From Shigella phage Sf25: a DNA stretch of 64,000 bases. Position numbers and translations under genes: made by a program. The stretch is taken from sequence record MF327009; one strand, given 5' to 3'. The notes under the pieces were generated by a model. The model saw only the letters and a program-made list of their open reading frames with translations, was not told where the DNA came from and did no database searches. Positions 20,930-58,651 of this stretch are shown here, one piece after another (position 1 is the first letter of the stretch; each line of letters begins with the position of its first letter).

Positions 20930-20963
20930 AATTTCCTCATACAAGTTTTAGTGTAAATTATAA

Positions 20964-20977
20964 AGGGCCGAAGCCCT
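20964..20977 (-). other. intercistronic RNA stem-loop (UUCG tetraloop) between 45 and 44
   Basis: agggc-cgaa-gccct on plus strand. Confidence 0.4.
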
Positions 20978-20980
20978 CTA

Positions 20981-21667: not shown

Positions 21668-21722
21668 GTAATTTCCTTCAATTCAAATGAGATTTAATTT
21701 TATAACTAATTTAATAAAGCAA

Positions 21723-22112
21723 TTAACGATTAAAATCAGCCGCAATTGTTTCAGCAACAATTTGAGCAGCAACAATTAGGCGTTCATCTGCATTACCGCA
21801 ATATTCATCTTCTAAACGTTCACCGCATGAAGTCATAATAAATTTAGCACCGGCGTTTAGGGATTCTGCAGTATGTTTGCGCATTAGTTCAATCCATTTA
21901 TTACTTACTTCACGATCGATAGCTTCATAATACGCATGACGAGCAGGTGCAGATTTAATTTTGTTCTGAATAACTTCCATTGCGTTATCAGAAAGAGACA
22001 AAACCCATGCGCGACGAATTTTATTTTGGTTTTGCGGATTTGAGTCAGAACGCACGTGTTTTGGCTGAATATCTTTTACATCAACAGTATAATTCACAGT
22101 AATTTTAGTCAT
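21723..22112 (-). CDS. rpbA: RNA-polymerase-binding protein RpbA
   Basis: 129 aa, same length as T4 RpbA, between 46 and 45. Confidence 0.6.
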
Positions 22113-22121
22113 AATACACCT

Positions 22122-22310
22122 TTAGTCATAATAATCAGTAACAGTCCAAGCTTCATTTCTATTGGACATTATTTTTGTATATTCTGCTTTAAATGCATTC
22201 CTAAGCATAGATTCAGTAACTATATGCTCTTCATTAGAAAAATTATTTCTCAGAATATATCGTTTTATTTCAGGAAAAGTTAATAGATGCTGTCCAGTTG
22301 AATATTCCAT
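22122..22310 (-). CDS. hypothetical protein (62 aa)
   Basis: Minus-strand ORF; a 10-bp inverted repeat lies upstream at 22321-22365. Confidence 0.4.
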   Translation of the reverse strand: MEYSTGQHLLTFPEIKRYILRNNFSNEEHIVTESMLRNAFKAEYTKIMSNRNEAWTVTDYYD

Positions 22311-22365
22311 GTTTTTCCTCCATAGAGATTATACTCTAATAAATTAAAGCATAATCTCTTATAAA

Positions 22366-24048: not shown

Positions 24049-24308
24049 AAAAGATTCCTTTTAATGTATCTTTTAGACCATTCTATCATATCATCATAAT
24101 CTAAAAAGTATTCATCAAATTCAGCCATGCAAACAACACCTTGTACTGTTTTTGATGTAATATAAATTATTCCAACATATCTGGAATCTTCTTCGGTGTA
24201 ATCAATATTTGCTACGAATTCATCGTTAATGTCAAATGTCGAAAACTTCACAGTATGCATCCTTAATACAAGATACAGCCATATCTCGTAATGATTTAGG
24301 TGTGTCAT
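24045..24308 (-). CDS. hypothetical protein (87 aa)
   Basis: Minus-strand ORF between 47 and 46. Confidence 0.4.
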   Translation of the reverse strand: MTHLNHYEIWLYLVLRMHTVKFSTFDINDEFVANIDYTEEDSRYVGIIYITSKTVQGVVCMAEFDEYFLDYDDMIEWSKRYIKRNLL

Positions 24309-24495
24309 TATCTAAAATGTTGAAGTTAAAAGATACAGCCCAGTCAGTGCAGACCGTAACCTTTTTAATACAATCATCTTCAACCTCTAGCGGTTCAAAC
24401 CAATATTCAATAATTTCTTTATTCCCAATATCATCTTTTACTTCGCATTCAAAATGCTGACTCATCATAACATTTTTAAATTCATCAAAAGTCAT
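24232..24495 (-). CDS. hypothetical protein (87 aa)
   Basis: Minus-strand ORF between 47 and 46. Confidence 0.4.
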   Translation of the reverse strand: MTFDEFKNVMMSQHFECEVKDDIGNKEIIEYWFEPLEVEDDCIKKVTVCTDWAVSFNFNILDNDTPKSLRDMAVSCIKDAYCEVFDI

Positions 24496-25511
24496 TGTGT
24501 TGCCTCTACATATAACTGATTTGCATATTGAATAAGTGCTTCGCGATCAGAATCAGTGATGTCTGGAATTGCATTAATGTATTCTTCCATCAACGTCTGA
24601 AGAGATTGAACTTCCACTTCTTCGCTATCATCTGACTCAACAGAGTTATCAATCTTTGACACAACTCGTAATGAATGCACAACTTTTTCTAGTTCAGATT
24701 CGAACTTCGTTAAATTTTTGTCTACTTCAGTTACTATAACACGCACTGATAGATTTGTAAAATCTTTATAGTCAATTTTTCCCTTAAATGGATATTGAAT
24801 TCGACGATGCCAGGTAGTGTTGTTTGGAATAAATTCCATTCGTTCTGTTTCTGTATCAAACATCCAGAACCCGCGAGGGTCATTCTCGTCACCTGCAGTT
24901 AGTGTCCATGGTGTCCCAATATATCTGACGTTAGCAGCCTCAGAGATAGTATGGAAGTGACCAGACCACACTTCTTTATAAGTCTTAAGGAAATCAGGTT
25001 CAAGACCATGAGATTTCATTCCTTTATAAAAATAAAATCCGTTCAGTTCCCAGTGACCAACGCAAAAAGAAGCAAATGAAGTTTTGATGTGTTCAAGAAT
25101 TTCACCAGTATTTTCTTCGCACATCCAAGGAATTAAATCAATCAAACATCCGTCAAAATCTACTGTAGTAGGCTTATCATATACTTTAACATTAGAATAT
25201 TTAGCCAAAAGCTCAGTAGAAGCATTTGGAGTTAAAGTATTTTTAAAGTGCATATCATGGTTTCCTACAACAGTATGTAGGGTAATACCAGCATCATCAA
25301 GCATTTGAACTATTTCACGGGCGAACTCCATAGTTTTATGTGTGATTGCTTTTCGCACATCAAAAATATCGCCGTATTGAATCCATGTAGTAATTCCATT
25401 TTTCTTAGAATATTCTATTGCTTGTTTAATTCCATCCAACTGAATGGATTGAACCCACTCATCATCGGCTTTAACACCTAAATGCCAATCACCTAAATTT
25501 AAAATTTTCAT
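24492..25511 (-). CDS. 47: recombination nuclease subunit gp47 (Mre11/SbcD-like)
   Basis: 339 aa; phosphoesterase motifs GDWHLG, GDIFD, GNHD. Confidence 0.9.
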   Translation of the reverse strand: MKILNLGDWHLGVKADDEWVQSIQLDGIKQAIEYSKKNGITTWIQYGDIFDVRKAITHKTMEFAREIVQMLDDAGITLHTVVGNHDMHFKNTLTPNASTELLAKYSNVKVYDKPTTVDFDGCLIDLIPWMCEENTGEILEHIKTSFASFCVGHWELNGFYFYKGMKSHGLEPDFLKTYKEVWSGHFHTISEAANVRYIGTPWTLTAGDENDPRGFWMFDTETERMEFIPNNTTWHRRIQYPFKGKIDYKDFTNLSVRVIVTEVDKNLTKFESELEKVVHSLRVVSKIDNSVESDDSEEVEVQSLQTLMEEYINAIPDITDSDREALIQYANQLYVEATQ

Positions 25512-25670
25512 ATATCAAGAACCGTCATTGAAATGCAAAATAAAATTATTGAAATAAATCCATCTGGAGTGCTAAAGAACCCAATCCAACATGCTCTAGT
25601 GAATAGATAAAATGCGAGAAAAAGTATCACATATCCAAGAAATATCATTATATCAAACTCCGTATAAAGC

Positions 25671-25688
25671 TAAAGGGCCGAAGCCCTT
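25671..25688 (-). other. RNA stem-loop (UUCG tetraloop) at the 3' end of alpha-gt
   Basis: aaagggc-cgaa-gcccttt on plus strand. Confidence 0.4.
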
Positions 25689-26890
25689 TATTTTGTAATA
25701 ATGTCAAACTGTTCTTTAAAGCAGAAGCTTGAATCTTGATGCTGATACAAAAATTCATAAGCTTTTTCGCGTTCACGGTCATAAAGAGTTCGGTCAGATG
25801 ACAGTTCTTTAATACGCTCAAATGTTGATTCCATGTCATTTTCATCAAACCAAACGATACCGCTATCATGAGAAATTAACGGAGTATTATCAACACGGAA
25901 TTTTAAATTTTCGCCAGTAGATTTCCAAAATACCGGAATTGTTCCACATGCACCAAGCTCGAGATGAGTATATTCTAAAGAACGTTGTAGATATTTTTTG
26001 TCCAACTTACTCAGCTGATAACCAAATCCGGATTTACTCATGCGTTCAAGCATTTCGCTATTTACATAACGGTCAAGAATTTGCGTTGGCAAATTAGGAG
26101 CAATTTTAATTTGGTCTACTTGATGAAGACGATAATACTCGTATGGAATTCCTTTTTCTTTAATAGGAATGAACGCTGGAGAACGTTCCAGACCTTCCAT
26201 AATAGTACTTAGTCCTGCAGGTTTAAGATGTTTTTCATGAAAATCAAACATCTGATAAAAACCTTTCCATGTAGTCGTACGACCAATCCAACGGTTGATA
26301 TTCATGTTAATTTCAGAAACATCTTTCCAGTAGGTTGACCGAACCTTCGCAATATCCATAGGAGGCTGAAAGTTATATACTGTCGGTGCTTCTTCAATAT
26401 CATCAAACAGAGAAACTGTTTCAGGATACCATTCTTTCATCAGAACTTTATTAAAATCACCATTATCAGAATGGCTAAAAATAACATCAGCTCGACGAAC
26501 AGTTTCTTCTAATCCCAAATTTCGGCGCAAAGAAAGAGAAGAATGGTCATGTTGATAAACTACAACACGAACAGAAGGTTTAATGTTATCAATAATTTTT
26601 TTATAGTTATTAATAGTGTCTTCTTCAACCGAAGTAGCAGGAACTGAATTGATAATTAGAATATCACAATCATTTACCAGCTTAAGTGTTTTATCATATT
26701 CTTTTGCCAATAAAACCGGAATTGAAAATGATTTATAATCATGCGCGCAATTACGAGTAAATGATTTATCTTTAGCATAAACCAAAGTTACTTCATGACC
26801 ATTCTTAATAAACCAATCACGTTGCTCAAGAGAAAATTTAGTTACACCACAACCTTCAAGACCTCGAGCCATAAAAATACATACTTTCAT
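25688..26890 (-). CDS. agt: DNA alpha-glucosyltransferase
   Basis: 400 aa; N-terminus M-x-CIFMARGLEGCGVTKFSLEQRDWFIKNGHEVTLVYAKDKSF matches T4 alpha-gt as recalled. Confidence 0.8.
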   Translation of the reverse strand: MKVCIFMARGLEGCGVTKFSLEQRDWFIKNGHEVTLVYAKDKSFTRNCAHDYKSFSIPVLLAKEYDKTLKLVNDCDILIINSVPATSVEEDTINNYKKIIDNIKPSVRVVVYQHDHSSLSLRRNLGLEETVRRADVIFSHSDNGDFNKVLMKEWYPETVSLFDDIEEAPTVYNFQPPMDIAKVRSTYWKDVSEINMNINRWIGRTTTWKGFYQMFDFHEKHLKPAGLSTIMEGLERSPAFIPIKEKGIPYEYYRLHQVDQIKIAPNLPTQILDRYVNSEMLERMSKSGFGYQLSKLDKKYLQRSLEYTHLELGACGTIPVFWKSTGENLKFRVDNTPLISHDSGIVWFDENDMESTFERIKELSSDRTLYDREREKAYEFLYQHQDSSFCFKEQFDIITK

Positions 26891-27133
26891 TTAATATCCT
26901 CTTTGTTTTGGTTTATTTTACCAAAAATTTATAAAGCAATATAGGAGCCGAAGCTCCTATCCACATAATACGCCATACAGAGGCTCATTAGAACTTTTAA
27001 ATTTTATGCGCTTATATTTTATAGTTCCTTCTGCTTTAGCTTTATCATGAGACGCTTTAAAGAGTCTCATCATTTCCTCTTTAGAGGAACGAATTTTATT
27101 ATAATCTATTTCAGAAGTCTGGGTGTTCATCTT

Positions 27134-27340
27134 TCATAACTGCCACCATTTTTTGACTTGATAAGAATCAACCCACACTTTCATATTAGGGTCTGCTCTT
27201 ACAATAGGAGGATTAACTTCTTTAATTGAACTATCATGGTATTCTTTTTCAGAAATTTTCACACAAAGATGACCATTCAAAGATTCAGTAAATCCTGCAT
27301 TAATTTTAAGACGCTTGAATTTTACGTGTGTAAGCATCAA
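27134..27340 (-). CDS. hypothetical protein (68 aa)
   Basis: Minus-strand ORF. Confidence 0.35.
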   Translation of the reverse strand: MMLTHVKFKRLKINAGFTESLNGHLCVKISEKEYHDSSIKEVNPPIVRADPNMKVWVDSYQVKKWWQL

Positions 27341-27623
27341 TCATATCCTCAATTTGCGATCTAGTAGTCTTCCAAAGAATACTGATGAGTTCATCGTTAT
27401 ATGGCTGTTTTAGAATATCCCGACTTTTCTTGATAGCATATTCGTATTGAGCAAAATTATTATTTTCAGCTGCGATCTGAGCGTGCTTATAAAGACGATT
27501 CAGTTCGCGTTTGTTTTTAGACAATAACTTATTTGCTTTTCTTTCTGCTTCAAGACGGTTCTTTTCTTCAATAGAAGAAATAAGCTTTTCCACTTCATCA
27601 TTAATTTCGGGTTTATCAGTCAT
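27306..27623 (-). CDS. hypothetical protein (105 aa)
   Basis: Minus-strand ORF. Confidence 0.4.
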   Translation of the reverse strand: MTDKPEINDEVEKLISSIEEKNRLEAERKANKLLSKNKRELNRLYKHAQIAAENNNFAQYEYAIKKSRDILKQPYNDELISILWKTTRSQIEDMIDAYTRKIQAS

Positions 27624-27624
27624 A

Positions 27625-27843
27625 TTATTTCTCTAATATAAAATAAAAATCATCATCTGTTAAATGATACCGATAGTTTAATTCTACACCATTAGATTTA
27701 AAAGCGGTATCATACGGATTTTCTGGATCAATATCAATGTCAAGAGCTAAAACTTCCCTGAGATACATTTTAAGTAAATAGGGAATAGCTTCAACTTCAG
27801 GTATTTCTTCCAAGAATCCGGAGAGGTTAATCGTTAGCCTCAT
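27625..27843 (-). CDS. hypothetical protein (72 aa)
   Basis: Minus-strand ORF immediately downstream of gene 55. Confidence 0.4.
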
Positions 27844-28384
27844 ATAAAAAATCCAAACTAGGAGAATCGTCTACAACACTTTTCTTTTCAGCCCCCGGTG
27901 TTCTATAGGTTGATTCTTCGTAATGCGTCATTTTATCATAGATGTCTTGAATAAAAGTTTCATCTACTAACGCAACCATATCGTCGTCACGACTGTCATA
28001 GACATTGTGAACGAAGTAACTATATTTCTTTGCAACTTCCTTACGTTCTTTTTTAATACGCTGGACGAATGCATTAAAACAAGCTTGAGTTATATACGCA
28101 TGTGGGTTTTTATATTTCGTTTCATCAAAATTATGAAGCCCCTTAATAGAAGCTTCTATACCATCTGCAATCATTTCTTGTTTCCAAGACTGGGTGTATC
28201 CTGAAAAGTTGAAACGTTTAGATAAGCCTTCTGCAATAAGCATAATGGCTAATCCAATAGTATCATTTTGACGAACTACTTTATTTGGGTCTTTATTATT
28301 TGCTAATTCTGTTTTCCAATCAATAATAGCTTGTAAAAGCTCTTTATTGTTTACGTAATTATATTTAGGCTTAGTTTCTGACAT
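27827..28384 (-). CDS. 55: late-transcription sigma factor gp55
   Basis: [25 protein letters not shown]-terminus and 185 aa length as T4 gp55. Confidence 0.8.
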
Positions 28385-28462
28385 TTTCACCTCTTAGCTC
28401 AATTCATAGATCTATTATATCATAATATTTGAAGATCTATCTTAAAGCATAGAGGATATCAG

Positions 28463-28732
28463 TTATCTAAGTAAACAGTATGCTTGGAATACTTTTTCCA
28501 TCATCTTTTTAAATTCATGAATATCTATATAATGACTAGTTAAATCAGCATGATATAAAAAGTCTAAAAACTTTTCATGTGTACTAACATATTCGCTTTC
28601 ATTTAATTCAGAAACATGGCTTTCCCAATATCCAACACCAGTCTTATTTGGGAAAAATGAAATTTTCATGTATTGGTCAACATAGAAAATGCCATAATTT
28701 TCAATAGTAATAGAAATATTAATAAATTTCAT
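28463..28732 (-). CDS. hypothetical protein (89 aa)
   Basis: Minus-strand ORF. Confidence 0.4.
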   Translation of the reverse strand: MKFINISITIENYGIFYVDQYMKISFFPNKTGVGYWESHVSELNESEYVSTHEKFLDFLYHADLTSHYIDIHEFKKMMEKVFQAYCLLR

Positions 28733-28944
28733 ACATTCATCAACTTAGCCGCTTCAAGAGCTGCATCTAGTGAATCAAATTGGTCAACATATTCAATCAA
28801 TTCGCCATAATTGGCATATAACCACCATTGGCTAAATTCATACTCAAGGATGAATCCATTTCCTTCAATTTGAGTTAAACCATTGCCGTTTGTATTTACT
28901 TCATATCCGGCAAGACGCAAATCGTTAATAAGAGCTTCGTTCAT
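28729..28944 (-). CDS. hypothetical protein (71 aa)
   Basis: Minus-strand ORF; start overlaps upstream stop. Confidence 0.4.
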   Translation of the reverse strand: MNEALINDLRLAGYEVNTNGNGLTQIEGNGFILEYEFSQWWLYANYGELIEYVDQFDSLDAALEAAKLMNV

Positions 28945-28946
28945 AA

Positions 28947-29273
28947 TTATACCTTAGTAATTTTCAGGTCTGCAAATTTTTTCTTGCGTTGATTTTTCAT
29001 ACGACGAATAGTTTTATCGGAAATTTCATGTTTTTGATAAGCTTTAGATTCTACACCAAAAGCTTTAACATCAAATTCTGACAAGATATATTGAACCAAC
29101 AATTCACGGACAGTATTTCGTCCAATCTTCTGATCATTCTGTTTCATCGTCTGATGAAGCTCTTTTTCCCATTTATCCAAAATTTGAGGAGTTACAATAT
29201 CGCCTTTTTCTAGCAAAGAAACTACTTTATCATATGCGTAAGAATTGATGGCGTTTTTAATTTGAATAGTCAT
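28947..29273 (-). CDS. hypothetical protein (108 aa)
   Basis: Minus-strand ORF, basic C-terminus. Confidence 0.4.
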   Translation of the reverse strand: MTIQIKNAINSYAYDKVVSLLEKGDIVTPQILDKWEKELHQTMKQNDQKIGRNTVRELLVQYILSEFDVKAFGVESKAYQKHEISDKTIRRMKNQRKKKFADLKITKV

Positions 29274-29300
29274 ACATTATCCTCAATTGCGTTAAAATTT

Positions 29301-29328
29301 TATTATCCAAAAAGGGCCGAAGCCCTTA
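29301..29328 (-). terminator. rho-independent terminator
   Basis: agggc-cgaa-gccct hairpin followed by UUUUUGG on minus. Confidence 0.5.
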
Positions 29329-29526
29329 GCTAAACTTTTTGGCACCCTTCCAGCCTTCATACATCATTGCGGCTGATATTAATATTGCTCCTGAGCATTT
29401 TGAATATTTGGTATTCCAAAACCAGTTTAGAAAAACTTCGTCATCAATACCTTGGGCTATCATGTTTTCAAAGAACTGACGACGAGCTTCAGCAATTCGT
29501 TGTGATAATTTAGATTCAGGATTCAT
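29326..29526 (-). CDS. hypothetical protein (66 aa)
   Basis: Minus-strand ORF. Confidence 0.35.
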   Translation of the reverse strand: MNPESKLSQRIAEARRQFFENMIAQGIDDEVFLNWFWNTKYSKCSGAILISAAMMYEGWKGAKKFS

Positions 29527-29664
29527 TTAAATTTTCCAGTTACCGTTTTCATCAATAAATTCAATCCAGTCATTTACTGACCACTTAGTTGTATCGCCTT
29601 TGGGGCAGAATTTAAAGTGTATAACCCCTGCTTAAAAAGCATTCGTTTGATATTCATATTTTCC

Positions 29665-29997
29665 TCAACTGTAACGATAACATTTGTTTGATTTACGTTT
29701 TGCAACACGATGAGAAGTATTGTAATCCAAATCATCCTCAACGTATACATCTTTTTTCAACTGACGAACTTCTTTACGCAGTTGACGATTCATCTCATTC
29801 TTGACTTCTGAATCAACGCCATAAAAACGTTTCCATTTGTCCGAACGGAAGATATTTTTATTCAAAGTTTCTTCTGATACACCGTCAGGTGCTTTACGTC
29901 TAGCCATGCAATTAAAATCTTTAGAAGACAATTCTTTACGACGATACGTTTTACCCATGGAGTTTAATTTCCTTAGCAACTGAACTAAATGCAGCAC
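29665..29997 (-). CDS. hypothetical basic protein (110 aa)
   Basis: Minus-strand ORF, Lys/Arg-rich. Confidence 0.4.
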   Translation of the reverse strand: MLHLVQLLRKLNSMGKTYRRKELSSKDFNCMARRKAPDGVSEETLNKNIFRSDKWKRFYGVDSEVKNEMNRQLRKEVRQLKKDVYVEDDLDYNTSHRVAKRKSNKCYRYS

Positions 29998-30133
29998 GAT
30001 CGCAAATCATGCGTTTATGTAACTTGAGTATAATATAGCAAACTTCAAAACTATTTACATGAGTAACACGAACAGCATTACCATTAATGAGATAATACTG
30101 TCCCTTTTTAATTTCTTTATCAACCACAACCAT
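29951..30133 (-). CDS. hypothetical protein (60 aa)
   Basis: Minus-strand ORF preceded by an early promoter. Confidence 0.35.
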   Translation of the reverse strand: MVVVDKEIKKGQYYLINGNAVRVTHVNSFEVCYIILKLHKRMICDRAAFSSVAKEIKLHG

Positions 30134-30159
30134 ATCAATTCCTCAAAGGTAATTCATAT

Positions 30160-30195
30160 GTTAATAATACCACGGTTTGAACTTGTTGTAAACAA
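30160..30195 (-). promoter_or_regulatory. T4-type early promoter
   Basis: gtaaac at 30188-30193 on plus strand with an upstream A/T-rich tract on minus. Confidence 0.45.
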
Positions 30196-30261
30196 CTTTG
30201 TGAAAAATATTTTAGGGAATGATAAGAAAGGAACGATAGCTTAGAATGGTAATATACAGAA

Positions 30262-30290
30262 TGCGAGAAAGAAAGGCCCAGAGGGCCCGT
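30262..30290 (-). terminator. rho-independent terminator downstream of nrdH
   Basis: ggccc-aga-gggcc hairpin followed by a U-rich run on minus. Confidence 0.5.
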
Positions 30291-30291
30291 C

Positions 30292-30600
30292 TTAATCTTC
30301 TATGATATCTCTATCATATCCAAGTGAAATGAGAGTTTCTTTGAAGTGTTTAATGTTCTTTTGTCTAGAATCATTAATGAAAATGACTGGATAACGAATG
30401 TTAAGAGATGTGAATCCAGCGCGTTTAGCAAGAGATACAATCAGTGGACGATCATACTCAATCTTACCGTTATTTGTAAGAACTTTATAGAAAGTAAAAG
30501 GAGCATTGAGCTCCTTTAGAAGTTTTGTAACTGATTGACATCCAGGACAACGACCTACTTCATCTGGAATTCCATAGACTTCAATCTTATTTTGTTTCAC
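30292..30600 (-). CDS. nrdH: glutaredoxin-like protein NrdH
   Basis: 102 aa with CPGC redox motif, adjacent to nrdG and nrdD. Confidence 0.65.
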   Translation of the reverse strand: MKQNKIEVYGIPDEVGRCPGCQSVTKLLKELNAPFTFYKVLTNNGKIEYDRPLIVSLAKRAGFTSLNIRYPVIFINDSRQKNIKHFKETLISLGYDRDIIED

Positions 30601-30602
30601 AA

Positions 30603-30839
30603 CTATTCCTTACTAAGAGCAGCATTCAGCTTGTTAGTAATTTTATCCAGACGCTCATTGAACTCACTAGAAGATAGTCCTTTTTCTGGAGAAATCAAAC
30701 TAATCACGAAAAATATAGCAATAAAAGGAATAAGGAAAATAGCTCCAACTGCCATAAACAAAAAGAATGTTACAGTTGTAAGAAAATCAGCTAAACCTTT
30801 ACGAAATTTATACATATTTACCCTTAATTGATTAACCAA
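30603..30839 (-). CDS. small membrane protein (78 aa)
   Basis: Long central hydrophobic segment. Confidence 0.4.
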   Translation of the reverse strand: MVNQLRVNMYKFRKGLADFLTTVTFFLFMAVGAIFLIPFIAIFFVISLISPEKGLSSSEFNERLDKITNKLNAALSKE

Positions 30840-30929
30840 GCATTGATAAGCACTAAACTATATTGCGAATAAAATTCTGGACCAAAATGAAAAATCATAT
30901 CATTTATAGTGTCCATAATATAATTCAAT

Positions 30930-31400
30930 TTAATCATGTTTCCACACCCCATCGGTATTTGACCAAAGTCGCTGATTATCTGATCCTCGCCACAGCTTTT
31001 TGGTCGGAAGATTTTTCTCATACTTCCCATCAATAATAACATCAACATATTTAAGCATTTCTAGTTGTTTAATATCTTCAAATTTATATCCTGTCCACAA
31101 CCAAATGCTTTTATTGGGATAAAGATTTTTTACTGTTTGAACAATGCAATGAACAACATCTCGGTTATCAGGATAGAGAGGGTCTCCTCCAGTTATAGTT
31201 AATCCTTCTATATAATCATTATTCAAACATTCAATTAATTGTTCTAGTGTTTCACCAGTGAATGGAACACCGTTTCTAGCGTTCCATGTTGATTTATTAT
31301 AACACCCTTCGCATTTATGCAAACAACCTGTAACGAAAAGAACGACCCTGCAACCAGGGCCATTCACAAAATCACAAGGATAAAATCTATCATAATTCAT
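30930..31400 (-). CDS. nrdG: anaerobic ribonucleotide reductase activase NrdG (radical SAM)
   Basis: 156 aa; cysteine cluster CLHKCEGC. Confidence 0.85.
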   Translation of the reverse strand: MNYDRFYPCDFVNGPGCRVVLFVTGCLHKCEGCYNKSTWNARNGVPFTGETLEQLIECLNNDYIEGLTITGGDPLYPDNRDVVHCIVQTVKNLYPNKSIWLWTGYKFEDIKQLEMLKYVDVIIDGKYEKNLPTKKLWRGSDNQRLWSNTDGVWKHD

Positions 31401-31654
31401 TGATGCTTAACCCTATGCATGATTTCTTTATTTTTACCGAGATTAAATCCGCGCTCGTTAGGATTTCCCAAATAACCAACACCCTTCGCATTTATGCAAA
31501 CAACCTGTAACGAAAAGAACGACCCTGCAACCAGGGCCATTCACAAAATCACAAGGATAAAATCTATCATAATTCATTGATGCTTAACCCTATGCATGAT
31601 TTCTTTATTTTTACCGAGATTAAATCCGCGCTCGTTAGGATTTCCCAAATAACC
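31301..31654. repeat. perfect tandem duplication, 2 x 177 bp, spanning the nrdD 3' end, intergenic region and nrdG 5' end
   Basis: 31301-31477 is identical to 31478-31654; leaves a nrdG 5' fragment (ATG at 31577) between intact nrdD and intact nrdG. Confidence 0.9.
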
Positions 31655-35738: not shown

Positions 35739-36128
35739 TTAATCCAAAATATTATTAGGCATTGGTTGAACACTCACAAGTTCTTTAAAGAACTCAGTAG
35801 AGTCAGGCAATTTAACCATTTCCGGAGCATGCTTACTGAATTTATGTTTACATTGACGGCATTTATATTCAAGCTCTGGTTTACGCCAGTTAATCAATTG
35901 AACTTGTTCAGTACCGCATTCAGGGCAATTAGGAACGTTTTTAGAAGCCCTTTCACGACGTTCAACCATAACCATAATAGCATCCCATGCTGGAGGTTTA
36001 AAATCTAAATCGTCGCAGCCGTGAATCTTTCCACGCATTTCCATATCATCTTCCTCACCAGCCATAATAATTTTAATTAAACTGGAATTACTTGAAGCTG
36101 CAATGTCTTCTAATAAACGCTTTTTCAT
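35739..36128 (-). CDS. zinc-ribbon protein (129 aa)
   Basis: CPEC...CRQC four-Cys zinc-ribbon motif. Confidence 0.45.
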
Positions 36129-36874
36129 TTCAATACCTCAATAGCATTACGTAAACCATTTGCTTTTGCATTAAGAGCTTTTAACAATTTGGTGTGTTCT
36201 GCAATTTGGGCTTCAACTTCAATCAAACGGGCATTGAGATATTCACGTTCTTCACTCAGATTATCAACCTTTTCTACTTTAGGCTCTTTTACAACTGTCT
36301 TATATGTATTAGGGTTCTTCAGTTTAATTAGAATGCGTGAACTGTATAACATTGAACCATTATCTTCGGTTTCGTCATACATTTCCACTACGTCCATAAT
36401 TTTTAACATCATGCGGAGTTTATAAGACAACGAACGAATAGTTTTGTTGTGCTTATTAATTTCTTTAGCTGTCATGGTGCCAAGATTACGTGAGTAATAA
36501 TAAGGAACCTGGATATTAATTAATACTGATGAACCACCTGGCTTGTGTGTTACTTCATCAGCAATAACCCAGTCCTTAACATGAACTGTATTTGTACGGT
36601 CATCGCCCGCGGTAAATAGTTTGCGAGCATGCTTAAAAAGCATATTCACTTGGTCATTGAATTGACAAGCAAATTTATCAGCAAATTTAGTTTCAGGAAT
36701 GGTAGAAAACCAATCAGCCAAATGAGTCTTTTTAACATCATTAACAATAGTAAATTCAACCAAATCGGTTATAGATGTCTCAGATTTAATGAAGCTCGGC
36801 TTCATAAAGTTTTTAATGTTCTCATGAGCTACAGTAGAAGATAACATACGAGAACGTTTAAACCATTCAAGCAA
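36125..36874 (-). CDS. hypothetical protein with C-terminal coiled coil (249 aa)
   Basis: C-terminal 45 aa heptad-like ([42 protein letters not shown]). Confidence 0.45.
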   Translation of the reverse strand: MLEWFKRSRMLSSTVAHENIKNFMKPSFIKSETSITDLVEFTIVNDVKKTHLADWFSTIPETKFADKFACQFNDQVNMLFKHARKLFTAGDDRTNTVHVKDWVIADEVTHKPGGSSVLINIQVPYYYSRNLGTMTAKEINKHNKTIRSLSYKLRMMLKIMDVVEMYDETEDNGSMLYSSRILIKLKNPNTYKTVVKEPKVEKVDNLSEEREYLNARLIEVEAQIAEHTKLLKALNAKANGLRNAIEVLK

Positions 36875-37059
36875 ATTGCCTAACGAATGAGAATAAGCGT
36901 TTTGAGTATCTTTACAGATATGATTTTCCTGACCAACATATTGAAGGAAATCACGAAGAATATTATTGATTACTGCTCTGTGTCCTATCTGATAATTACG
37001 ATGTTTAGTAATAAGACTGTGGTTAATGGTTTATACTCCGAGCCATACTTGGCTTTAAA

Positions 37060-38361
37060 TTACTTAATTAACTGTAAAGCTTGTTCAAGACGATCAAGAC
37101 GATTAACGGATTCTTCCCAAATCTTTTTAGCACTTTCATATTCTTTTTCTGCTTTATTTTTAATTTCTAAAGCTTCTTTATAAGCTTTTTCTAGTGCAAT
37201 AACTTCTGGACGAATTTCTATTGGCTCAGGAGAATCATCGAGCCAATCCATCAATTCTTCAAGTGTGGTTTCTTCTTTAGGAGCATTCACAATTTCTTCA
37301 CATTTCTTCTGATGAATTTCTTTATCTGTTAGTGAATAAGCACATTTCACTTCACGAAGACTAATTACAATTTTATATCCTTCCCATCCGCATATATTCT
37401 TAAAAGGATATGTATGAATATTTTCTACTGTTTCCATACAAAGTAATGCAGTCTCTAACTGACGAGTTATAGTGCTAGCAATTGAGAAAAATTTATTAAT
37501 ATTCTTTTGGTTAGCGTTTGGTGTAAAAAATCCATAATTCACAAAAATAGCTACTTTATTTTCATCAAGCTCATATTCTAGTGAATAAGCACATTTCACT
37601 TCACGAAGACTAATTACAATTTTATATCCTTCCCATCCGCATATATTCTTAAAAGGATATGTATGAATATTTTCTACTGTTTCCATACAAAGTAATGCAG
37701 TCTCTAACTGACGAGTTATAGTGCTAGCAATTGAGAAAAATTTATTAATATTCTTTTGGTTAGCGTTTGGTGTAAAAAATCCATAATTCACAAAAATAGC
37801 TACTTTATTTTCATCAAGCTCATATTCTTTTACGATAATCATATCAGAAGCCAAAGGATGAATTTGACGATAATCGCCATAACATAATTTAGAAGCTGAT
37901 TTTAGAATTTGTCCTTTGAAAAGTCTGAAATTACTAATCCAACGACGAGTAAAAATATTCTCAGGGTCTTCTTTATTATTAAGATGATAAGAATTAACAT
38001 CACCGAACCAATTATATCCTACTACATCTTTGGTTCGTTTAATTTCTTTCCCAAAATTACCAAGAATATCCCGATTAACCAAATATGAAAGAAGACGAGA
38101 CTCTTTAAAGGTTTTCTTGATATTATCTTTATCTACACGGCTAGAAATTTTACGAATTTCATGAATAAATTTAGTAGAAGAAACAATACTTGCATCAACA
38201 CTATTGAGCCATTGATTGATAATGGAAAGAACGATATTTTGACCAAACATCGGTATAGCTTTATCATCAATAACGCTATTGAATGATTTGATATATTCGT
38301 TACGAGTCATATTAATCTCCTCAGTAGAAAGTAAGAACATTATACCACATCCTTGTGGCAA
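37060..38361 (-). CDS. hypothetical protein with C-terminal coiled coil and in-frame 83-aa internal duplication
   Basis: 433 aa as given; block YELDENKVAIFVNYGFF...REVKCAYSL occurs twice; likely real start MTRNEYIKSF. Confidence 0.45.
   Translation of the reverse strand: MPQGCGIMFLLSTEEINMTRNEYIKSFNSVIDDKAIPMFGQNIVLSIINQWLNSVDASIVSSTKFIHEIRKISSRVDKDNIKKTFKESRLLSYLVNRDILGNFGKEIKRTKDVVGYNWFGDVNSYHLNNKEDPENIFTRRWISNFRLFKGQILKSASKLCYGDYRQIHPLASDMIIVKEYELDENKVAIFVNYGFFTPNANQKNINKFFSIASTITRQLETALLCMETVENIHTYPFKNICGWEGYKIVISLREVKCAYSLEYELDENKVAIFVNYGFFTPNANQKNINKFFSIASTITRQLETALLCMETVENIHTYPFKNICGWEGYKIVISLREVKCAYSLTDKEIHQKKCEEIVNAPKEETTLEELMDWLDDSPEPIEIRPEVIALEKAYKEALEIKNKAEKEYESAKKIWEESVNRLDRLEQALQLIK
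37331..37828. repeat. perfect tandem duplication, 2 x 249 bp
   Basis: 37331-37579 is identical to 37580-37828; in-frame. Confidence 0.9.
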
Positions 38362-38367
38362 AGTAAA

Positions 38368-39642
38368 CTAGTTCAGTGCATTTAGTGCATTGTTCAGTTT
38401 AGAACGTTGCTTCGTGAGATTTTTGACTTTTTCTTGTGCTTTTTCTAGCATCTTTTCAGCTTCTAACACTTCATTGGTCGCTTTAACGAGTTCATCATCT
38501 ACTGCCTTAAGGGACTTCTCAATCGCATCCGCGTGCCATTTTTCAACAGGTTTAAGACTCGGATTTTCAATAGGAAGAAAATTCACTTTATTGAATTTCC
38601 ATGCATCTTTATTACCTGAACTATACATCCAAAATTTAGGATCGTTTGATGAGTAATTGGATAAATTTAAATTTAAGTTATCTTGCACTTCTTGCTTTTT
38701 CTCTTGCGTGACTTCGTCCTTTCTCAAAAAATCGTATTTAAATGAAACGATCATATCAAGTTCATATGTTGTTGTGTCTAATTTAAATCGTTCGAAATGC
38801 TGTGAAATCTTAGACTGAATAGGAAGAAAATTCACTTTATTGAATTTCCATGCATCTTTATTACCTGAACTATACATCCAAAATTTAGGATCGTTTGATG
38901 AGTAATTGGATAAATTTAAATTTAAGTTATCTTGCACTTCTTGCTTTTTCTCTTGCGTGACTTCGTCCTTTCTCAAAAAATCGTATTTAAATGAAACGAT
39001 CATATCAAGTTCATATGTTGTTGTGTCTAATTTAAATCGTTCGAAATGCTGTGAAATCTTAGACTGAACAGCAGCAACAACATCCATATACTTAAATGCT
39101 TCTGTCAACTGTGATTTAAGACATTCGCAAATTGAAAGAGAATTTTTTGTATTAGGTTTAAAGCTAATTCGTGCAGTTCTATTATTTTCTTTTAATGGTC
39201 TTACTTCCATCTGAAGAGTATAACCATCAAATTTCAGGTTCTTTAAGTTAATATCAGAACCTTTTAATCGACTCGCAGTTGATAAAATTTGCTTTAATTG
39301 TCTACGGAATAGAGCAATAAATCTCCATTCAATACGATAATGATTTGGATTGAAAAATCCAGATGATAAATCGACCTTACTTTGACCAACGCCTTGAACA
39401 AATAGAGGATTTTTATAATCAATAGTTTTACAGAAATCGGTTAGCTGCTCACGAGCAGTCATTTGTGTAATATACCCCGCTTTACTAAAATGACGTAACC
39501 ATTCACTGCTATTCATATATTTAAAGTGAATATCACGATTAACTTTATCAGGGTCTAAATTATTTTGGCACAAAAATGTCATAACATCACGAGTATAGCT
39601 GGCATTACGAATCATATCTTCAATTTGAGAACGAGTTTTCAT
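38368..39642 (-). CDS. hypothetical protein with C-terminal coiled coil and in-frame 83-aa internal duplication
   Basis: 424 aa as given; block ...SKISQHFERFKLDTTTYELDMIVSFKYDF...KVNFLP occurs twice. Confidence 0.45.
   Translation of the reverse strand: MKTRSQIEDMIRNASYTRDVMTFLCQNNLDPDKVNRDIHFKYMNSSEWLRHFSKAGYITQMTAREQLTDFCKTIDYKNPLFVQGVGQSKVDLSSGFFNPNHYRIEWRFIALFRRQLKQILSTASRLKGSDINLKNLKFDGYTLQMEVRPLKENNRTARISFKPNTKNSLSICECLKSQLTEAFKYMDVVAAVQSKISQHFERFKLDTTTYELDMIVSFKYDFLRKDEVTQEKKQEVQDNLNLNLSNYSSNDPKFWMYSSGNKDAWKFNKVNFLPIQSKISQHFERFKLDTTTYELDMIVSFKYDFLRKDEVTQEKKQEVQDNLNLNLSNYSSNDPKFWMYSSGNKDAWKFNKVNFLPIENPSLKPVEKWHADAIEKSLKAVDDELVKATNEVLEAEKMLEKAQEKVKNLTKQRSKLNNALNALN
38569..39066. repeat. 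perfect tandem duplication, 2 x 249 bp
   Basis: 38569-38817 is identical to 38818-39066; in-frame. Confidence 0.9.
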
Positions 39643-39650
39643 GGTGTTCC

Positions 39651-40808
39651 TTAAGATTTAAGTAAATCAACAATTTTAATTAACTTTTCACGCTCGGATT
39701 TAGCTTTACTACTCAGTCCAGATAGTCTGAAAATTTCATCATCATATTGTTGAATAGAAATATTCAGCTCTTCAATCTGTTTATTAAAATAATCAATTTG
39801 TTCAGAATGTTTTTCGTTACTACGAACTGGTACAGGTTTTGTAGGCAATTTAGTTGAACTGGATTCATCCGGGCGATAAATTAAAATACAACTTGAACCA
39901 ATAGGGCATTTTGCACCAGATGAATATTCTAATGTTCCAGCTTCTTTTAAAACTTCAAAAGCTAAACAGAGATGATGCCCCATATTAACATAATCTGTAG
40001 AGTGAGCTCTGATCAGCTCTTCAATCTGTTTATTAAAATAATCAATTTGTTCAGAATGTTTTTCGTTACTACGAACTGGTACAGGTTTTGTAGGCAATTT
40101 AGTTGAACTGGATTCATCCGGGCGATAAATTAAAATACAACTTGAACCAATAGGGCATTTTGCACCAGATGAATATTCTAATGTTCCAGCTTCTTTTAAA
40201 ACTTCAAAAGCTAAACAGAGATGATGCCCCATATTAACATAATCTGTAGAGTGAGCTCTGATGTAATAATCATCTCCACGAATACTAAATTTAAAGCATT
40301 TAAGGTCTTCTGTATTATTGGTCTTAAAAATCATTTGTTTATCTAGACCTTTAGCTAATCGAGCGCCTAATGCTAATAATCGTCGTTGATTTTCCCACAA
40401 ATCCGCAATCATTTGATCGAATGATAATTTCGGCATTAGTCGACCATAAAGGTCATATCCTTTATTATAATTGCGAAGGATTTCACTCGCATTAATACGA
40501 GACAACGCTCCAATTTTATTAAGGGCTTTCATGATGCGATTAGATAAACCCATTCCAGACCCGTTTGTTCGTTGTAAATGTTTATCTAATCCAAACCCAA
40601 TATCAACTTTAAATTTATCTAAAATTTCAGCATGAACATCTCTGTCAATAACATTCAAATCCAAAGTTTGGTTAAATCTATGAAAAAATTTATCTGGCTC
40701 TCCACGACGAAGTACAGTCCATTCATTCAATTTTTTATTAACTAAAGATTTAATTACTGCATTGACATTATTAATTACTACTGACATATTTTCCTCACTC
40801 AATTTCAA
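39651..40808 (-). CDS. hypothetical protein with C-terminal coiled coil and in-frame 83-aa internal duplication
   Basis: 385 aa as given; block RAHSTDYVNMGHHLCLAFEVLKEAGT...NKQIEEL occurs twice. Confidence 0.45.
   Translation of the reverse strand: MKLSEENMSVVINNVNAVIKSLVNKKLNEWTVLRRGEPDKFFHRFNQTLDLNVIDRDVHAEILDKFKVDIGFGLDKHLQRTNGSGMGLSNRIMKALNKIGALSRINASEILRNYNKGYDLYGRLMPKLSFDQMIADLWENQRRLLALGARLAKGLDKQMIFKTNNTEDLKCFKFSIRGDDYYIRAHSTDYVNMGHHLCLAFEVLKEAGTLEYSSGAKCPIGSSCILIYRPDESSSTKLPTKPVPVRSNEKHSEQIDYFNKQIEELIRAHSTDYVNMGHHLCLAFEVLKEAGTLEYSSGAKCPIGSSCILIYRPDESSSTKLPTKPVPVRSNEKHSEQIDYFNKQIEELNISIQQYDDEIFRLSGLSSKAKSEREKLIKIVDLLKS
39765..40262. repeat. perfect tandem duplication, 2 x 249 bp
   Basis: 39765-40013 is identical to 40014-40262; in-frame. 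Confidence 0.9.
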
Positions 40809-41257: not shown

Positions 41258-41785
41258 TTATGCGAGTACCGTCTTTAACCGTTCTTCAAACTTCCGAAGA
41301 GTATTCTGGCGTTCAGCTCTTTGCTTTTTATAAGTTTCAATACGCTCTGAAATGAGAGTGTATCGTTCATTTACTGATTCTTTCATAAAATCAGGAATTT
41401 CACGAGAAGCTTTAATCTCGTCAAATTTATCAATAACAGCTTGCTCTTCAGCAATTAAGTTATCATACATCAAAATATCTTTCTTGATGAACTCAATATC
41501 TTCTTGAGTTACACGAGATAATTTAGATGCTTTATCCTTTTTGTACTGTTCGTTAGTATCACGAGACCAGTGTAATGTACGATTTTTATTCGTATTCTTG
41601 TAAATTTCTACAATACCAATCTCATCAATAATAACGATCCAATTCCAACGTGATTTGTAAATTTGTCCTCCATCAACAGTGATTTCACCTCCGATTGAGA
41701 TGTCGTTAAAGAACTTGCTTTGTGCTTCAGATTTAAATTTACCATCGTTGTAATTTACCAAGTTGAAAATATCTTTAGCGTTCAT
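41258..41785 (-). CDS. hypothetical protein (175 aa)
   Basis: Minus-strand ORF preceded by an early promoter. Confidence 0.45.
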   Translation of the reverse strand: MNAKDIFNLVNYNDGKFKSEAQSKFFNDISIGGEITVDGGQIYKSRWNWIVIIDEIGIVEIYKNTNKNRTLHWSRDTNEQYKKDKASKLSRVTQEDIEFIKKDILMYDNLIAEEQAVIDKFDEIKASREIPDFMKESVNERYTLISERIETYKKQRAERQNTLRKFEERLKTVLA

Positions 41786-41811
41786 TTTCTGTTCCTCCGT
41801 AGTTGATAGTT

Positions 41812-41845
41812 GTATAGTACCACAGAGGAACAGTCTTGTAAACCA
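41812..41845 (-). promoter_or_regulatory. T4-type early promoter
   Basis: gtaaac at 41838-41843 on plus strand plus the conserved -10 block. Confidence 0.5.
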
Positions 41846-42160
41846 CTAAAAGAAACTTCTTTCACAATTTTTTCCACTGAACCATGCACTTACCGCTTTC
41901 TTAGTCTCAGGAGCAGTGTTATCCATAAACCATTCAAAGGCAGCCTTTTTATGATTCTGGAGGGCTTCTCGGGCTTTAATCTGCTCACGGTCTATTAACA
42001 CTAACATATGAGCCTTTCTTGTCACCATGGGCTTCTTATGATTTTTTGAATACTCCCAGTCATTTGTCCATCGCATTGTCGTTGCGAACTGAAATACTGC
42101 TTCTTTAATTTTAGTTTCGTAAATTTCACGAGCCTTTGAGTATAACATCATTACCTCCAT
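41846..42160 (-). CDS. hypothetical protein (104 aa)
   Basis: Minus-strand ORF. Confidence 0.4.
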   Translation of the reverse strand: MEVMMLYSKAREIYETKIKEAVFQFATTMRWTNDWEYSKNHKKPMVTRKAHMLVLIDREQIKAREALQNHKKAAFEWFMDNTAPETKKAVSAWFSGKNCERSFF

Positions 42161-42249: not shown

Positions 42250-43284
42250 TTATTTCAGAAGAGTAACCTCAGCAATTTCTTCCCAACCGTTTTTGTCGGT
42301 CATAATAAAGTCAGCAAGATAAAGAGCAGTACGCAGTGAAACATTGCGTAAACGATTAACATTAACTTTCATCCATGATAATGCTTTATAAGTTTCTTCA
42401 TCAGAAAGACCGCGCTTTTGCATCATGTCAGTTGAAAGAATAACATCTTCAACCCTGACCATAATTTCTTCATTAGTGTGAACACCCAAATCTAAATAAA
42501 CCGAGCGGGACACTAATGCTTGTAAATGTGGAGCAAGTTTAGTACCACGGTCTAATTCGCGGTCAATGTCAACGTTTGTGATAAAAACAATCGTTCCTTT
42601 AAATTCAAACTCACGCTCAATGCCTTTTTCTTCTAAGTAAGAAGACGCAGTGCTCCAGCAGACTTTACGGGTCTCTCCAGTGTCCAGAGCGGCTTTTAGA
42701 AGATTAAGAATGTCCATATCAGAGAAAACATCCACATCATCAATCAAAAGGACAGAATTCTCTTCACGATTATTCCAAAGCTGTTCATAAAGACCGATAC
42801 CAGAGATTTTACCATTAATGCTTTTATATTCAATGTATCCAATATCATTTGCTTTATTTAAAGCTTTATCTAAAGAATACGTTTTACCAATACCTGCTGC
42901 ACCAGAGATAATTAATGAACGAATGTTTCCGTTAATAATACCATTCGTCATCATTCCCATAACATTAAATCTTTTATTAATGCGGGTTTTCATATCTTCA
43001 TACGATTCTTTAACTTCTTCAACTTTTACACCATCATATGAAATGTCTGATTTGTAAACCCAAACACCGCGACGCTTACCGTCAATTTCAACAAAAACTT
43101 TACCATCTCCTTGCGCATCTACTGGAGCATTATCAGGGAACCACTCACCTAAGAGTTCAAAAGTTCCAGAGATTTCTTTGCCAAAGTAGATACCCTTATT
43201 GATAGTTACAGTTTTCATTTTATTCTCCAAATCCGCATCAGTTGATAGTTGTATAGTACCATAAAGCTTTATGCTTGTAAACAA
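42250..43284 (-). CDS. P-loop NTPase (344 aa)
   Basis: Walker A GAAGIGKTYS and Walker B-like VLLIDDVD; about 110-aa N-terminal extension of unknown fold. Confidence 0.5.
   Translation of the reverse strand: MFTSIKLYGTIQLSTDADLENKMKTVTINKGIYFGKEISGTFELLGEWFPDNAPVDAQGDGKVFVEIDGKRRGVWVYKSDISYDGVKVEEVKESYEDMKTRINKRFNVMGMMTNGIINGNIRSLIISGAAGIGKTYSLDKALNKANDIGYIEYKSINGKISGIGLYEQLWNNREENSVLLIDDVDVFSDMDILNLLKAALDTGETRKVCWSTASSYLEEKGIEREFEFKGTIVFITNVDIDRELDRGTKLAPHLQALVSRSVYLDLGVHTNEEIMVRVEDVILSTDMMQKRGLSDEETYKALSWMKVNVNRLRNVSLRTALYLADFIMTDKNGWEEIAEVTLLK
43250..43284 (-). promoter_or_regulatory. T4-type early promoter
   Basis: gtaaac at 43277-43282 on plus strand plus the conserved -10 block; just upstream of the ATPase ATG. 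Confidence 0.5.
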
Positions 43285-43304
43285 CTTTGTGAAAAAATTT
43301 TGAA

Positions 43305-43331
43305 ATAAAAAAGGGAGCCCGAAGGCTCCCT
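43305..43331 (-). terminator. rho-independent terminator
   Basis: gggagcc-cgaa-ggctccc hairpin followed by UUUUUUU on minus, downstream of the 43333-44346 gene. Confidence 0.6.
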
Positions 43332-49497: not shown

Positions 49498-49835
49498 CTA
49501 GTACTCAATCCTCGATTATAAGAATCTACCAAACGGTCAACCATTGAATGACAAGCGGCTTTATCTTTTTCCTCCGCAACTGAACATTCTAAGGTATTCC
49601 ACTTTTTAGCATATCGTTTTAACAATGTATCATTTTTGTATCTGCTTGATTTATCTCTTTCTCCGTCTTTATATGCATATATTAATTTCTGTGCAAATTC
49701 AGCTTGGCATGCTTTATTTTTCCCGCAATAATCCGCTGCAGTACGGTTTACATACTCTCTAATTTCAGTATATGATGTATCTGCTAACGCAGAAAATGAA
49801 ATTAATCCTATACATAAAACCAAAATTTTAGTCAT
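49494..49835 (-). CDS. secreted protein (113 aa)
   Basis: Signal peptide MTKILVLCIGLISFSALADT; four Cys. Confidence 0.45.
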   Translation of the reverse strand: MTKILVLCIGLISFSALADTSYTEIREYVNRTAADYCGKNKACQAEFAQKLIYAYKDGERDKSSRYKNDTLLKRYAKKWNTLECSVAEEKDKAACHSMVDRLVDSYNRGLSTR

Positions 49836-58131: not shown

Positions 58132-58137
58132 AGAATG

Positions 58138-58611: not shown

Positions 58612-58651
58612 CTTATTTCCTGTTTTAATTCGTGGTTTTAATATACTACTA

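Follow-up and report, generated by a model that had tools for sequence, protein, structure and literature searches.

Perfect 249-bp tandem duplications in nrdC.4, nrdC.5 and nrdC.6 of the Shigella phage Sf25 record are very probably assembly artefacts

Genes and duplications at the locus

The window, i.e. the whole 64-kb stretch of DNA analysed here, comes from the deposited record MF327009.1 of Shigella phage Sf25, a T4-like Tequatrovirus. The three consecutive genes singled out in the first-pass annotation are present on the minus strand, and correspond to T4 nrdC.4, nrdC.5 and nrdC.6. The extents proposed for them hold as open reading frames, although GenBank places two of the starts at 38310 and 40787 and not at the TTG codons that lie further upstream, 38361 and 40808. 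The genes, with the lengths of their products as deposited and after the repeat is collapsed, are as follows.

37060-38310, minus strand: nrdC.4 homologue (Sf25_gp218, AUV63498.1); 416 aa deposited, 333 aa collapsed
38368-39642, minus strand: nrdC.5 homologue (Sf25_gp219, AUV63499.1); 424 aa deposited, 341 aa collapsed; DUF7235
39651-40787, minus strand: nrdC.6 homologue (Sf25_gp220, AUV63500.1); 378 aa deposited, 295 aa collapsed

Each gene carries one tandem duplication (unstranded features).

37330-37827: tandem duplication, 2 x 249 bp, in nrdC.4; copies 37330-37578 and 37579-37827, join 37578/37579
38569-39066: tandem duplication, 2 x 249 bp, in nrdC.5; copies 38569-38817 and 38818-39066, join 38817/38818
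39764-40261: tandem duplication, 2 x 249 bp, in nrdC.6; copies 39764-40012 and 40013-40261, join 40012/40013

The claim of three perfect tandem duplications of exactly 249 bp was reproduced by two programs and an exact-match script, and the three units are equal on recount. The positions first given for them differ from ours by at most 1 nt, which, with matching runs of 250, 251 and 250 nt, lies inside the phase ambiguity of 1-2 nt. All three repeats have 100% identity, no indel, two copies and a period of 249. A perfect repeat of 249 nt cannot arise by chance, and we also agree that three events of equal length cannot have come about independently by chance. The units themselves bear no sequence relation to one another. 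Since 249 equals 3 x 83 nt and the units lie within coding sequence, the reading frame is kept automatically, and its retention adds no further coincidence.

Proteins encoded by nrdC.4, nrdC.5 and nrdC.6

As had been proposed, 83 codons are copied in each gene, giving an exact 83-residue repeat at residues 162-244/245-327 in the nrdC.4 protein, 193-275/276-358 in the nrdC.5 protein and 176-258/259-341 in the nrdC.6 protein. The repeats lie about 90, 67 and 38 codons, respectively, from the stop. The C-terminal coiled coil attributed to all three proteins is upheld at a heuristic level, from hydrophobic periodicity: over its last ~50 residues, each protein is strongly periodic in hydrophobicity, with a period of 3.5 residues (P <= 0.003 against shuffles), and contains 0 or 1 Pro/Gly there.

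These features bear on the second of the two explanations first offered for the duplications, a systematic artefact or an engineered or selected domain doubling. Three neighbouring genes of similar size, each ending in a heptad-periodic helix and each enlarged by exactly 83 codons, might suggest that a shared domain was doubled by selection in three paralogous coiled-coil proteins, or by deliberate engineering. However, the unrelated units lie at unlike positions in the proteins, and the proteins are not demonstrable paralogues; a comparison of the three, put forward earlier as a check of paralogy, gave a best E value of 0.84 with blastp and of 0.05, at 1% probability, with hhalign. Among the nrdC.3-nrdC.6 proteins, nrdC.3 and nrdC.4 are the sole supported paralogue pair. 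The nrdC.4 protein matches phrog_1435 in two stretches and its relatives bear Pfam PF26897, while the relatives of nrdC.6 bear PF26899. Domain doubling would lead one to expect homology of the repeat between the proteins and its conservation in homologues, both of which are absent: the 83-residue repeat was found in no homologue in any collection examined, and homologues, all lacking it, measure 333-343 aa for nrdC.4, 339-341 aa for nrdC.5 and 294-296 aa for nrdC.6. Engineering or domain doubling is further at odds with the origin of the phage, an environmental isolate from river water, and with events of the same type at five unrelated places, essential genes included. We therefore regard both as having a negligible probability. 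The artefact explanation, by contrast, is borne out by the window-wide set of events, the essential genes hit, the lack of microhomology and the lack of the duplications in relatives, as described below.

The collapsed proteins of 333, 341 and 295 aa share 87-99% identity with their Sf24 homologues, and are ordinary full-length members of the T4 nrdC.3-nrdC.6 families (PF26897 Phage_T4_Y04OP, PF23882 DUF7235 and PF26899 Phage_T4_Y05B), whereas the deposited versions differ from these accessory proteins by 83 spurious extra residues. The true nrdC.4, nrdC.5 and nrdC.6 genes appear to be single-copy, encoding 333, 341 and 295 aa.

Other duplications and deletions in the window

Five further duplications, absent from the first-pass annotation, begin at 2238, 5126, 14194, 18264 and 31301 (unstranded features).

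2238-2653: tandem duplication, 2 x 208 bp; modA.2, a small gene, is doubled in full
5126-5613: tandem duplication, 2 x 244 bp, within gene 56 (dCTPase); frame shifted, annotated products of 117 and 135 aa
14194-14421: tandem duplication, 2 x 114 bp, within gene 42 (dCMP hydroxymethylase); 284 aa vs 246
18264-18557: tandem duplication, 2 x 147 bp, within gene 43 (DNA polymerase); 947 aa vs 898, residues ~106-154 doubled
31301-31654: tandem duplication, 2 x 177 bp, spanning the nrdG start and the nrdD stop

The window as a whole contains eight perfect two-copy tandem duplications, of 114, 147, 177, 208, 244, 249, 249 and 249 bp. Against every relative compared, it also shows at least five equally abrupt deletions, of about 45 to 156 bp (likewise unstranded).

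1417/1418: 156-bp abrupt deletion within modA relative to Sf24 and T4; 148 aa vs 200
19617/19618: 139-bp abrupt deletion in gene 62 (clamp-loader small subunit); residues 118-164 lost, frameshift, 120 aa vs 187
37016-37020: abrupt deletion of about 43-47 bp; the nrdC.3 start and first 12 codons are gone
46830/46831: 145-bp abrupt deletion; the last 29 codons of mobD.6 are gone
58904: 83-bp abrupt deletion; surrounding DNA 99.9-100% identical to Sf24

The deletion at 37016-37020 is absent from Sf24, T4 and all ten of the independent assemblies (of 11) that retain the region. The density of join errors in the window is about one per 5 kb. Pfam scans of two open reading frames near the tRNA cluster gave no match.

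Two properties of this set are those that errors of joining would be expected to leave. All eight duplications are exact head-to-tail copies without divergence or indels, at 100% identity and exactly 2.0 copies; and they are accompanied by the deletions, with genes 56, 62, nrdC.3 and mobD.6 damaged. Three of the eight reach the maximum of 249 bp with unrelated units, which may reflect a technical bound on length. In the sister genome Sf20, from the same study, perfect tandem duplications of 74 bp and 332 bp occur within alt and at the end of gene 34. The longer one exceeds 249 bp, implying that a limit of 249 is not universal for the pipeline of that study.

The alternative that Sf25 itself acquired these duplications, through illegitimate or short-homology recombination or replication slippage of the sort known from T4-type phages, with the in-frame ones tolerated in nrdC.4-nrdC.6, is very improbable in our estimation. 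The record was deposited as a complete genome with the duplicated proteins annotated, nrdC.4-nrdC.6 are non-essential accessory genes with no assigned function in which the insertions keep the frame, and the lengths of six of the eight duplications are multiples of three, a possible hint of selection. This last excess is not significant; counting the three 249s as one capped value leaves four of six (P about 0.1, calculated by hand). Against genuine duplication stand the equality of three lengths in unrelated sequences, copies that are always perfect and always two in number, the abrupt deletions alongside, and the findings on viability, distribution and junctions that follow.

Damage to essential genes

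Genes 56, 62, 43 and 42 are essential according to established T4 genetics. In Sf25, the sibling events split gene 56 by a frameshift, truncate and frameshift gene 62, and add 49 aa to gp43, around its Exo I region, and 38 aa to gp42. A number of these changes would be lethal, and a phage that was isolated and forms plaques cannot carry them. The gene 56 frameshift and the gene 62 truncation in particular, with essentiality taken from T4 genetics, are inconsistent with the viability that a genuine duplication would have to preserve. On that footing, the pattern of events is incompatible with a viable phage.

Presence in the public record and absence from relatives

The defects are reproduced verbatim in the annotated proteins of MF327009.1. 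AUV63498-63500 have 416, 424 and 378 aa; AUV63457 has 947 aa against 898 in the remaining full-length members of its cluster; AUV63460 has 120 aa against 187; and AUV63439 and AUV63438 have 117 + 135 aa against 172. They have also passed into UniProt, as A0A2K9VM97, A0A2K9VMG1 and A0A2K9VMF6 for nrdC.4-nrdC.6 and A0A2K9VME2 for the 947-aa DNA polymerase, and the 424-aa protein falls outside its true family in 90% clustering. As the duplicated proteins stand verbatim in both databases, the idea that the duplications had been planted in the window was rejected.

Every relative and independent assembly examined lacks the duplications, as expected for an artefact and contrary to genuine duplication. 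Comparison with T4 (49 kb), Sf24 (67 kb) and 11 independent assemblies (226 kb) turned up no perfect tandem duplication of this kind. Among 740 phage records, the best 25 all align the 5,001-nt region to about 4,300 nt. Queries of 140 nt spanning the joins matched their top hits at up to 100% identity, but always in two pieces with a span of 245-251 bp. The three 249-bp sites are single-copy in those 25 best records, in the 11 independent assemblies and in every top hit of the join queries. Exact k-mers across the join 37578/37579 were not found in the viral contig set, nor were those across 38817/38818, either there or in the metagenome and genome contig sets. The exact Sf25 nrdC.7 protein occurs on no other record, and the collections include no second, independent assembly of this isolate.

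Junctions and similarity to Sf24

A genuine duplication might be expected to have its endpoints in short direct repeats. At all eight duplications, however, the matching run beyond the period is only 0-2 nt, which is the level expected by chance, and no event has endpoints of that kind.

The positions of the joins seem instead to be related to the similarity with Sf24, which by segment is 96.4, 99.8, 97.3, 98.6, 99.7, 98.8, 93.4, 98.4, 99.7 and 96.2%. Joins tend to be placed where this similarity changes, the mean change in identity being 0.023 across joins and 0.012 at random sites (P = 0.013). In the 244- and 249-bp events, the unit lies on the Sf24-identical side of a transition from divergent to identical sequence, and in three of these four its edge is 0-6 nt from the last variant. 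For nrdC.4, the Sf24-divergent stretch stops at most 2 nt from the start of the unit; for nrdC.6, the first Sf24 mismatch is 1 nt past the unit. The duplicated units contain seven Sf24 mismatches in 1,637 nt, compared with 1.8% overall, a depletion that is no more than suggestive in a placement test (P = 0.06).

Possibly, the Sf25 record mixes two genotypes that were sequenced together, as a patchwork. A plain chimera of genomes from the databases was considered and rejected, as the segments between joins are not 100% copies of any of them; the best identities are 97.9-99.7%, the best matches being slur07, Sf24 (for both 37579-38817 and 38818-40012) and G9062. Were the in-frame 249-bp events real, they would call for homology-free copying of a fixed 249 nt into the adjacent position, e.g. 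by a template switch of constant length at mosaic boundaries during replication, with the out-of-frame events and the deletions derived from defective genomes in the lysate. We hold this combination to be extremely improbable.

A model of unmerged overlaps at assembly joins

We conclude with high confidence that the three 249-bp duplications are artefacts of assembly or finishing in MF327009.1 and not biology. In the model that we favor, the record would consist of contigs or unitigs placed end to end. Where neighbouring pieces overlap, the shared end would be written twice, producing a perfect two-copy tandem repeat; where they do not meet, a short stretch would be lost, leaving an abrupt deletion. 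The pieces would presumably end at branches of the assembly graph, at which sequence shared with a second, Sf24-like genotype gives way to differing sequence. We infer that the length of 249 bp recurs, and is the largest observed, as a result of an upper bound that the data impose. Most likely, this bound is one less than the length of 250-nt reads, or a comparable fixed overlap.

An artefact could also have been produced by another route, either a large-k de Bruijn assembly with a fixed k-mer overlap, or iterative read-walking or reference-guided consensus building that re-adds a read-sized block with every extension. A recurrent maximum of 249 suits any fixed upper bound, deletions of less than 250 bp elsewhere suit stepwise extension or reference-ordered abutment, and the 332-bp event of Sf20 indicates that a simple rule of read length minus one was not universal there. 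A fixed k-mer overlap, however, predicts one constant length and not a range from 114 to 249. Overlap-type joins fit better, since the lengths are variable and pile up at the maximum, and we consider such a different route possible but rather unlikely.

Significance and comparison with known systems

The significance of the presumed unmerged overlaps in this record concerns data quality only. Spurious insertions, truncations and split genes are present in MF327009.1 and in the protein entries that stem from it, and errors of this type can be misleading when domain repeats, protein-family alignments or clustering are studied and when pangenome genes or tRNAs are counted. A simple screen for records of this kind could look for several perfect two-copy tandem repeats whose maximum length recurs.

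Genuine tandem duplications of T4-type phages, and the gene 'accordions' of large DNA viruses, usually have endpoints in short homologies. Their size and often their copy number vary, selection acts on them, and the virus stays viable. The Sf25 duplications resemble them in being head-to-tail doublings of a segment in a large dsDNA virus, but differ in having 0-2 nt of homology, three equal sizes, always two copies and lethal siblings.

A closer counterpart is offered by the homotype false duplications at contig boundaries that are known from long-read assemblies of vertebrate genomes (Rhie et al. 2021, Nature; PMC8081667). The Sf25 case differs from these in concerning a phage genome of 168 kb, presumably assembled from short reads, in which join errors appear to be unusually dense. 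As in that class (PMC8081667), however, the Sf25 duplications are exact, lie head to tail at joins and have a length that may be about one read or less, and they likewise inflate genes, create false exon or domain duplications and accompany further join errors.

Results

Three perfect two-copy tandem repeats of period 249, all without gaps, are recovered alike by Tandem Repeats Finder, by a repeat finder and by an exact-match script, confirming the duplications that the first-pass annotation had reported in three adjacent genes.

Perfect tandem repeats of 2 x 249 bp
37330-37827, minus-strand gene nrdC.4
38569-39066, minus-strand gene nrdC.5
39764-40261, minus-strand gene nrdC.6

The hosts are three consecutive ORFs, homologues of the T4 accessory genes so named, and each encoded protein contains an exact 83-residue repeat, matching the 83 copied codons per gene claimed at first. 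Two of the originally proposed gene starts (38361 and 40808) need correction, as GenBank places them at the ATG codons at 38310 and 40787, not at upstream TTG codons. The unit, i.e. one copy, lies ~90, ~67 and ~38 codons from the stop codon of nrdC.4, nrdC.5 and nrdC.6, respectively (hand count from coordinates). The three 249-nt units have nothing in common when compared with one another, and the in-frame insertion is mere arithmetic, since 249 = 3 x 83.

The window (G+C ~33%, nearly all genes on the minus strand) aligns over its whole length with Tequatrovirus (T4-like) phages, the best relative being Shigella phage Sf24. An exact-sequence look-up returns the duplicated proteins as AUV63498.1, AUV63499.1 and AUV63500.1 of Shigella phage Sf25 (168,573-bp record; accession MF327009.1 according to a published table); therefore, the duplications belong to the public record and were not introduced later.

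With the repeats collapsed, the three proteins are ordinary family members (DUF7235 for nrdC.5; PF26897 and PF26899 in relatives). Paralogy among the three with the duplicate removed, which had been proposed for checking, is unsupported, as relatedness among nrdC.4, nrdC.5 and nrdC.6 is not demonstrable by pairwise comparison including hhalign; nrdC.3 is a paralogue of nrdC.4 (hhalign probability 92%, E = 6e-7). Each of nrdC.4-6 ends in a heptad-periodic, highly charged helix of ~50 residues with 0 or 1 Pro/Gly, so that the coiled coils suggested earlier are reasonable but have nothing to do with the duplications. From nrdC.3 to nrdC.6 (36125-40787), four consecutive proteins of 295-341 aa are encoded, which beyond the nrdC.3/nrdC.4 pair are unrelated save for short C-terminal helix matches; in profile comparison, the C-terminus of nrdC.3 matches the C-termini of nrdC.5 and nrdC.6 over short stretches.

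Eleven independent assemblies of the locus, all from isolates other than Sf25, were taken from GenBank, ENA and JGI. Tandem duplications of at least 30 bp are absent from their 226 kb, from 49 kb of T4 and from 67 kb of Sf24. Where the genes are present, nrdC.6 encodes 294-296 aa, nrdC.5 339-341 aa and nrdC.4 333-343 aa. In each assembly retaining the region, the alignment to the window breaks at the same four positions with a subject overlap of ~248 bp, the signature of a single-copy unit. In the best 25 of 740 phage records, 5,001 nt of the window map onto ~4,300 nt. Queries of 140 nt spanning the joins (the boundaries between first and second copy) match many records at 100% identity at all three joins, the match being split in every case into two parts separated by 245-251 bp. 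For two of the three 249-bp joins, the join k-mers have no match in the viral contig collection; for one of these two, the metagenome and genome collections likewise contain none.

Duplication events extend beyond nrdC.4-nrdC.6: eight perfect two-copy tandem duplications are found over all 64 kb (208, 244, 114, 147, 177, 249, 249 and 249 bp). At all eight, the match continues only 0-2 nt past the period, implying no microhomology at the joins. Alignment to Sf24 and T4 also reveals at least five abrupt deletions, with junction homology of 0-2 nt, which probably mark places where assembly pieces were abutted across a gap.

Abrupt deletions
1417|1418, 156 bp, modA truncated
19617|19618, 139 bp, gene 62 truncated
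37016-37020, ~45 bp, nrdC.3 start lost
46830|46831, 145 bp, mobD.6 end lost
58904, 83 bp, called against Sf24 only

According to established T4 genetics, genes 56, 62, 43 and 42 are essential. Gene 56 (dCTPase) is broken into two reading frames, annotated as products of 117 aa and 135 aa vs 172 aa elsewhere. Gene 62 (clamp loader) lacks residues 118-164 and is frame-shifted, the deposited protein having 120 aa where the other listed members of its cluster have 187 aa. The DNA polymerase has 947 aa, not 898, with residues ~106-154 occurring twice, and gp42 has 284 aa, not 246. Since the Sf25 isolate forms plaques, the deposited versions of these essential genes cannot be right.

Identity to Sf24 steps at the joins between segments of ~99.7-99.8% and segments of 93-98%; averaged over the joins, the change is 0.023, vs 0.012 at random positions (P = 0.013). 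Each unit of 244 or 249 bp sits where divergence from Sf24 gives way to identity, on the identical side of that transition; in three of these four cases, the last variant is 0-6 nt away from the unit edge. Depletion of Sf24 mismatches inside the units reaches only P = 0.06.

Segments at 5370-14307, 19618-31477, 38818-40012 and 58657-64000 are 99.7-99.9% identical to Sf24, vs 93-98% in their neighbours, and the switches often coincide exactly with faulty joins. Two genotypes may have been patched together in the deposited sequence, or the library may have contained Sf24-like reads.

Dispersed repeats of ~45-70 nt (plus-strand form TTGATAGTTGTATAGTACCA...TGTAAAC) lie upstream of minus-strand genes; they resemble T4 early promoter regions and are ordinary in this phage group.

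Dispersed repeats
15850-15940
30150-30220
41781-41873
43208-43310
57906-58010
61498-61588
61851-61919

An insertion of ~520 bp relative to Sf24 (58134-58656), both sides of which align to the same 36 nt of Sf24, carries a 157-aa minus-strand ORF (58138-58611) without a match in a Pfam search. The tRNA cluster has 9 tRNAs vs 10 in Sf24; a published tRNA-count table already gives 9 for Sf25. A ~70-bp deletion merges tRNA-Leu and tRNA-Gln into a single 82-nt 'tRNA-Leu' (59957-60038, join near 60010-60020). At this junction, ~11 nt match each of the two flanks of the Sf24 stretch that is missing here; the deletion could be natural or could reflect a collapse during assembly.

Discussion

The first-pass annotation had left the choice between an artefact and an engineered or selected domain doubling. 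The 249-bp events are of exactly the same kind as the gene-breaking events, and the three equal lengths, being also the series maximum, suggest a technical upper bound rather than three biological events. Together with the window-wide duplications and deletions, this makes an assembly or finishing error in the public record the very probable origin of the feature, and the biological reading falls away.

A second, Sf24-like genotype among the reads would create branch points, where the pieces of an overlap-type assembly would end; neighbouring pieces of this kind would share at most one base less than a full read. The identity steps at the joins are as expected if pieces had stopped there. For this specific route, a read-length-minus-one overlap at strain branch points, we put the chances at even or slightly better.

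Sf20, a sister genome of the same study (Doore et al. 2018), also has perfect two-copy tandem duplications in the first 99 kb scanned, indicating that the problem is not limited to Sf25.

Tandem duplications in Sf20 (MF327006.1)
49625-49772, 74 bp, within the alt ADP-ribosyltransferase gene
83680-84343, 332 bp, end of gene 34 (long tail fibre)

The two lengths are not multiples of 3, and a join error of this sort probably underlies both duplications; the 332-bp event shows that 249 is no universal cap within that study.

These results can serve to flag the Sf25 record and its derived protein entries. The Sf25 nrdC.4, nrdC.5 and nrdC.6 proteins occupy 90%-identity clusters of 4, 3 and 1 members, the remaining members, if any, being fragments. 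The clusters are tiny and apart from the true families because of the false 83-aa repeats, an example of assembly errors spreading into clustered protein databases. In its exact head-to-tail copies, their absence from relatives and the accompanying join errors, the Sf25 case agrees with the homotype false duplications at contig boundaries described by Rhie et al. 2021 (PMC8081667).
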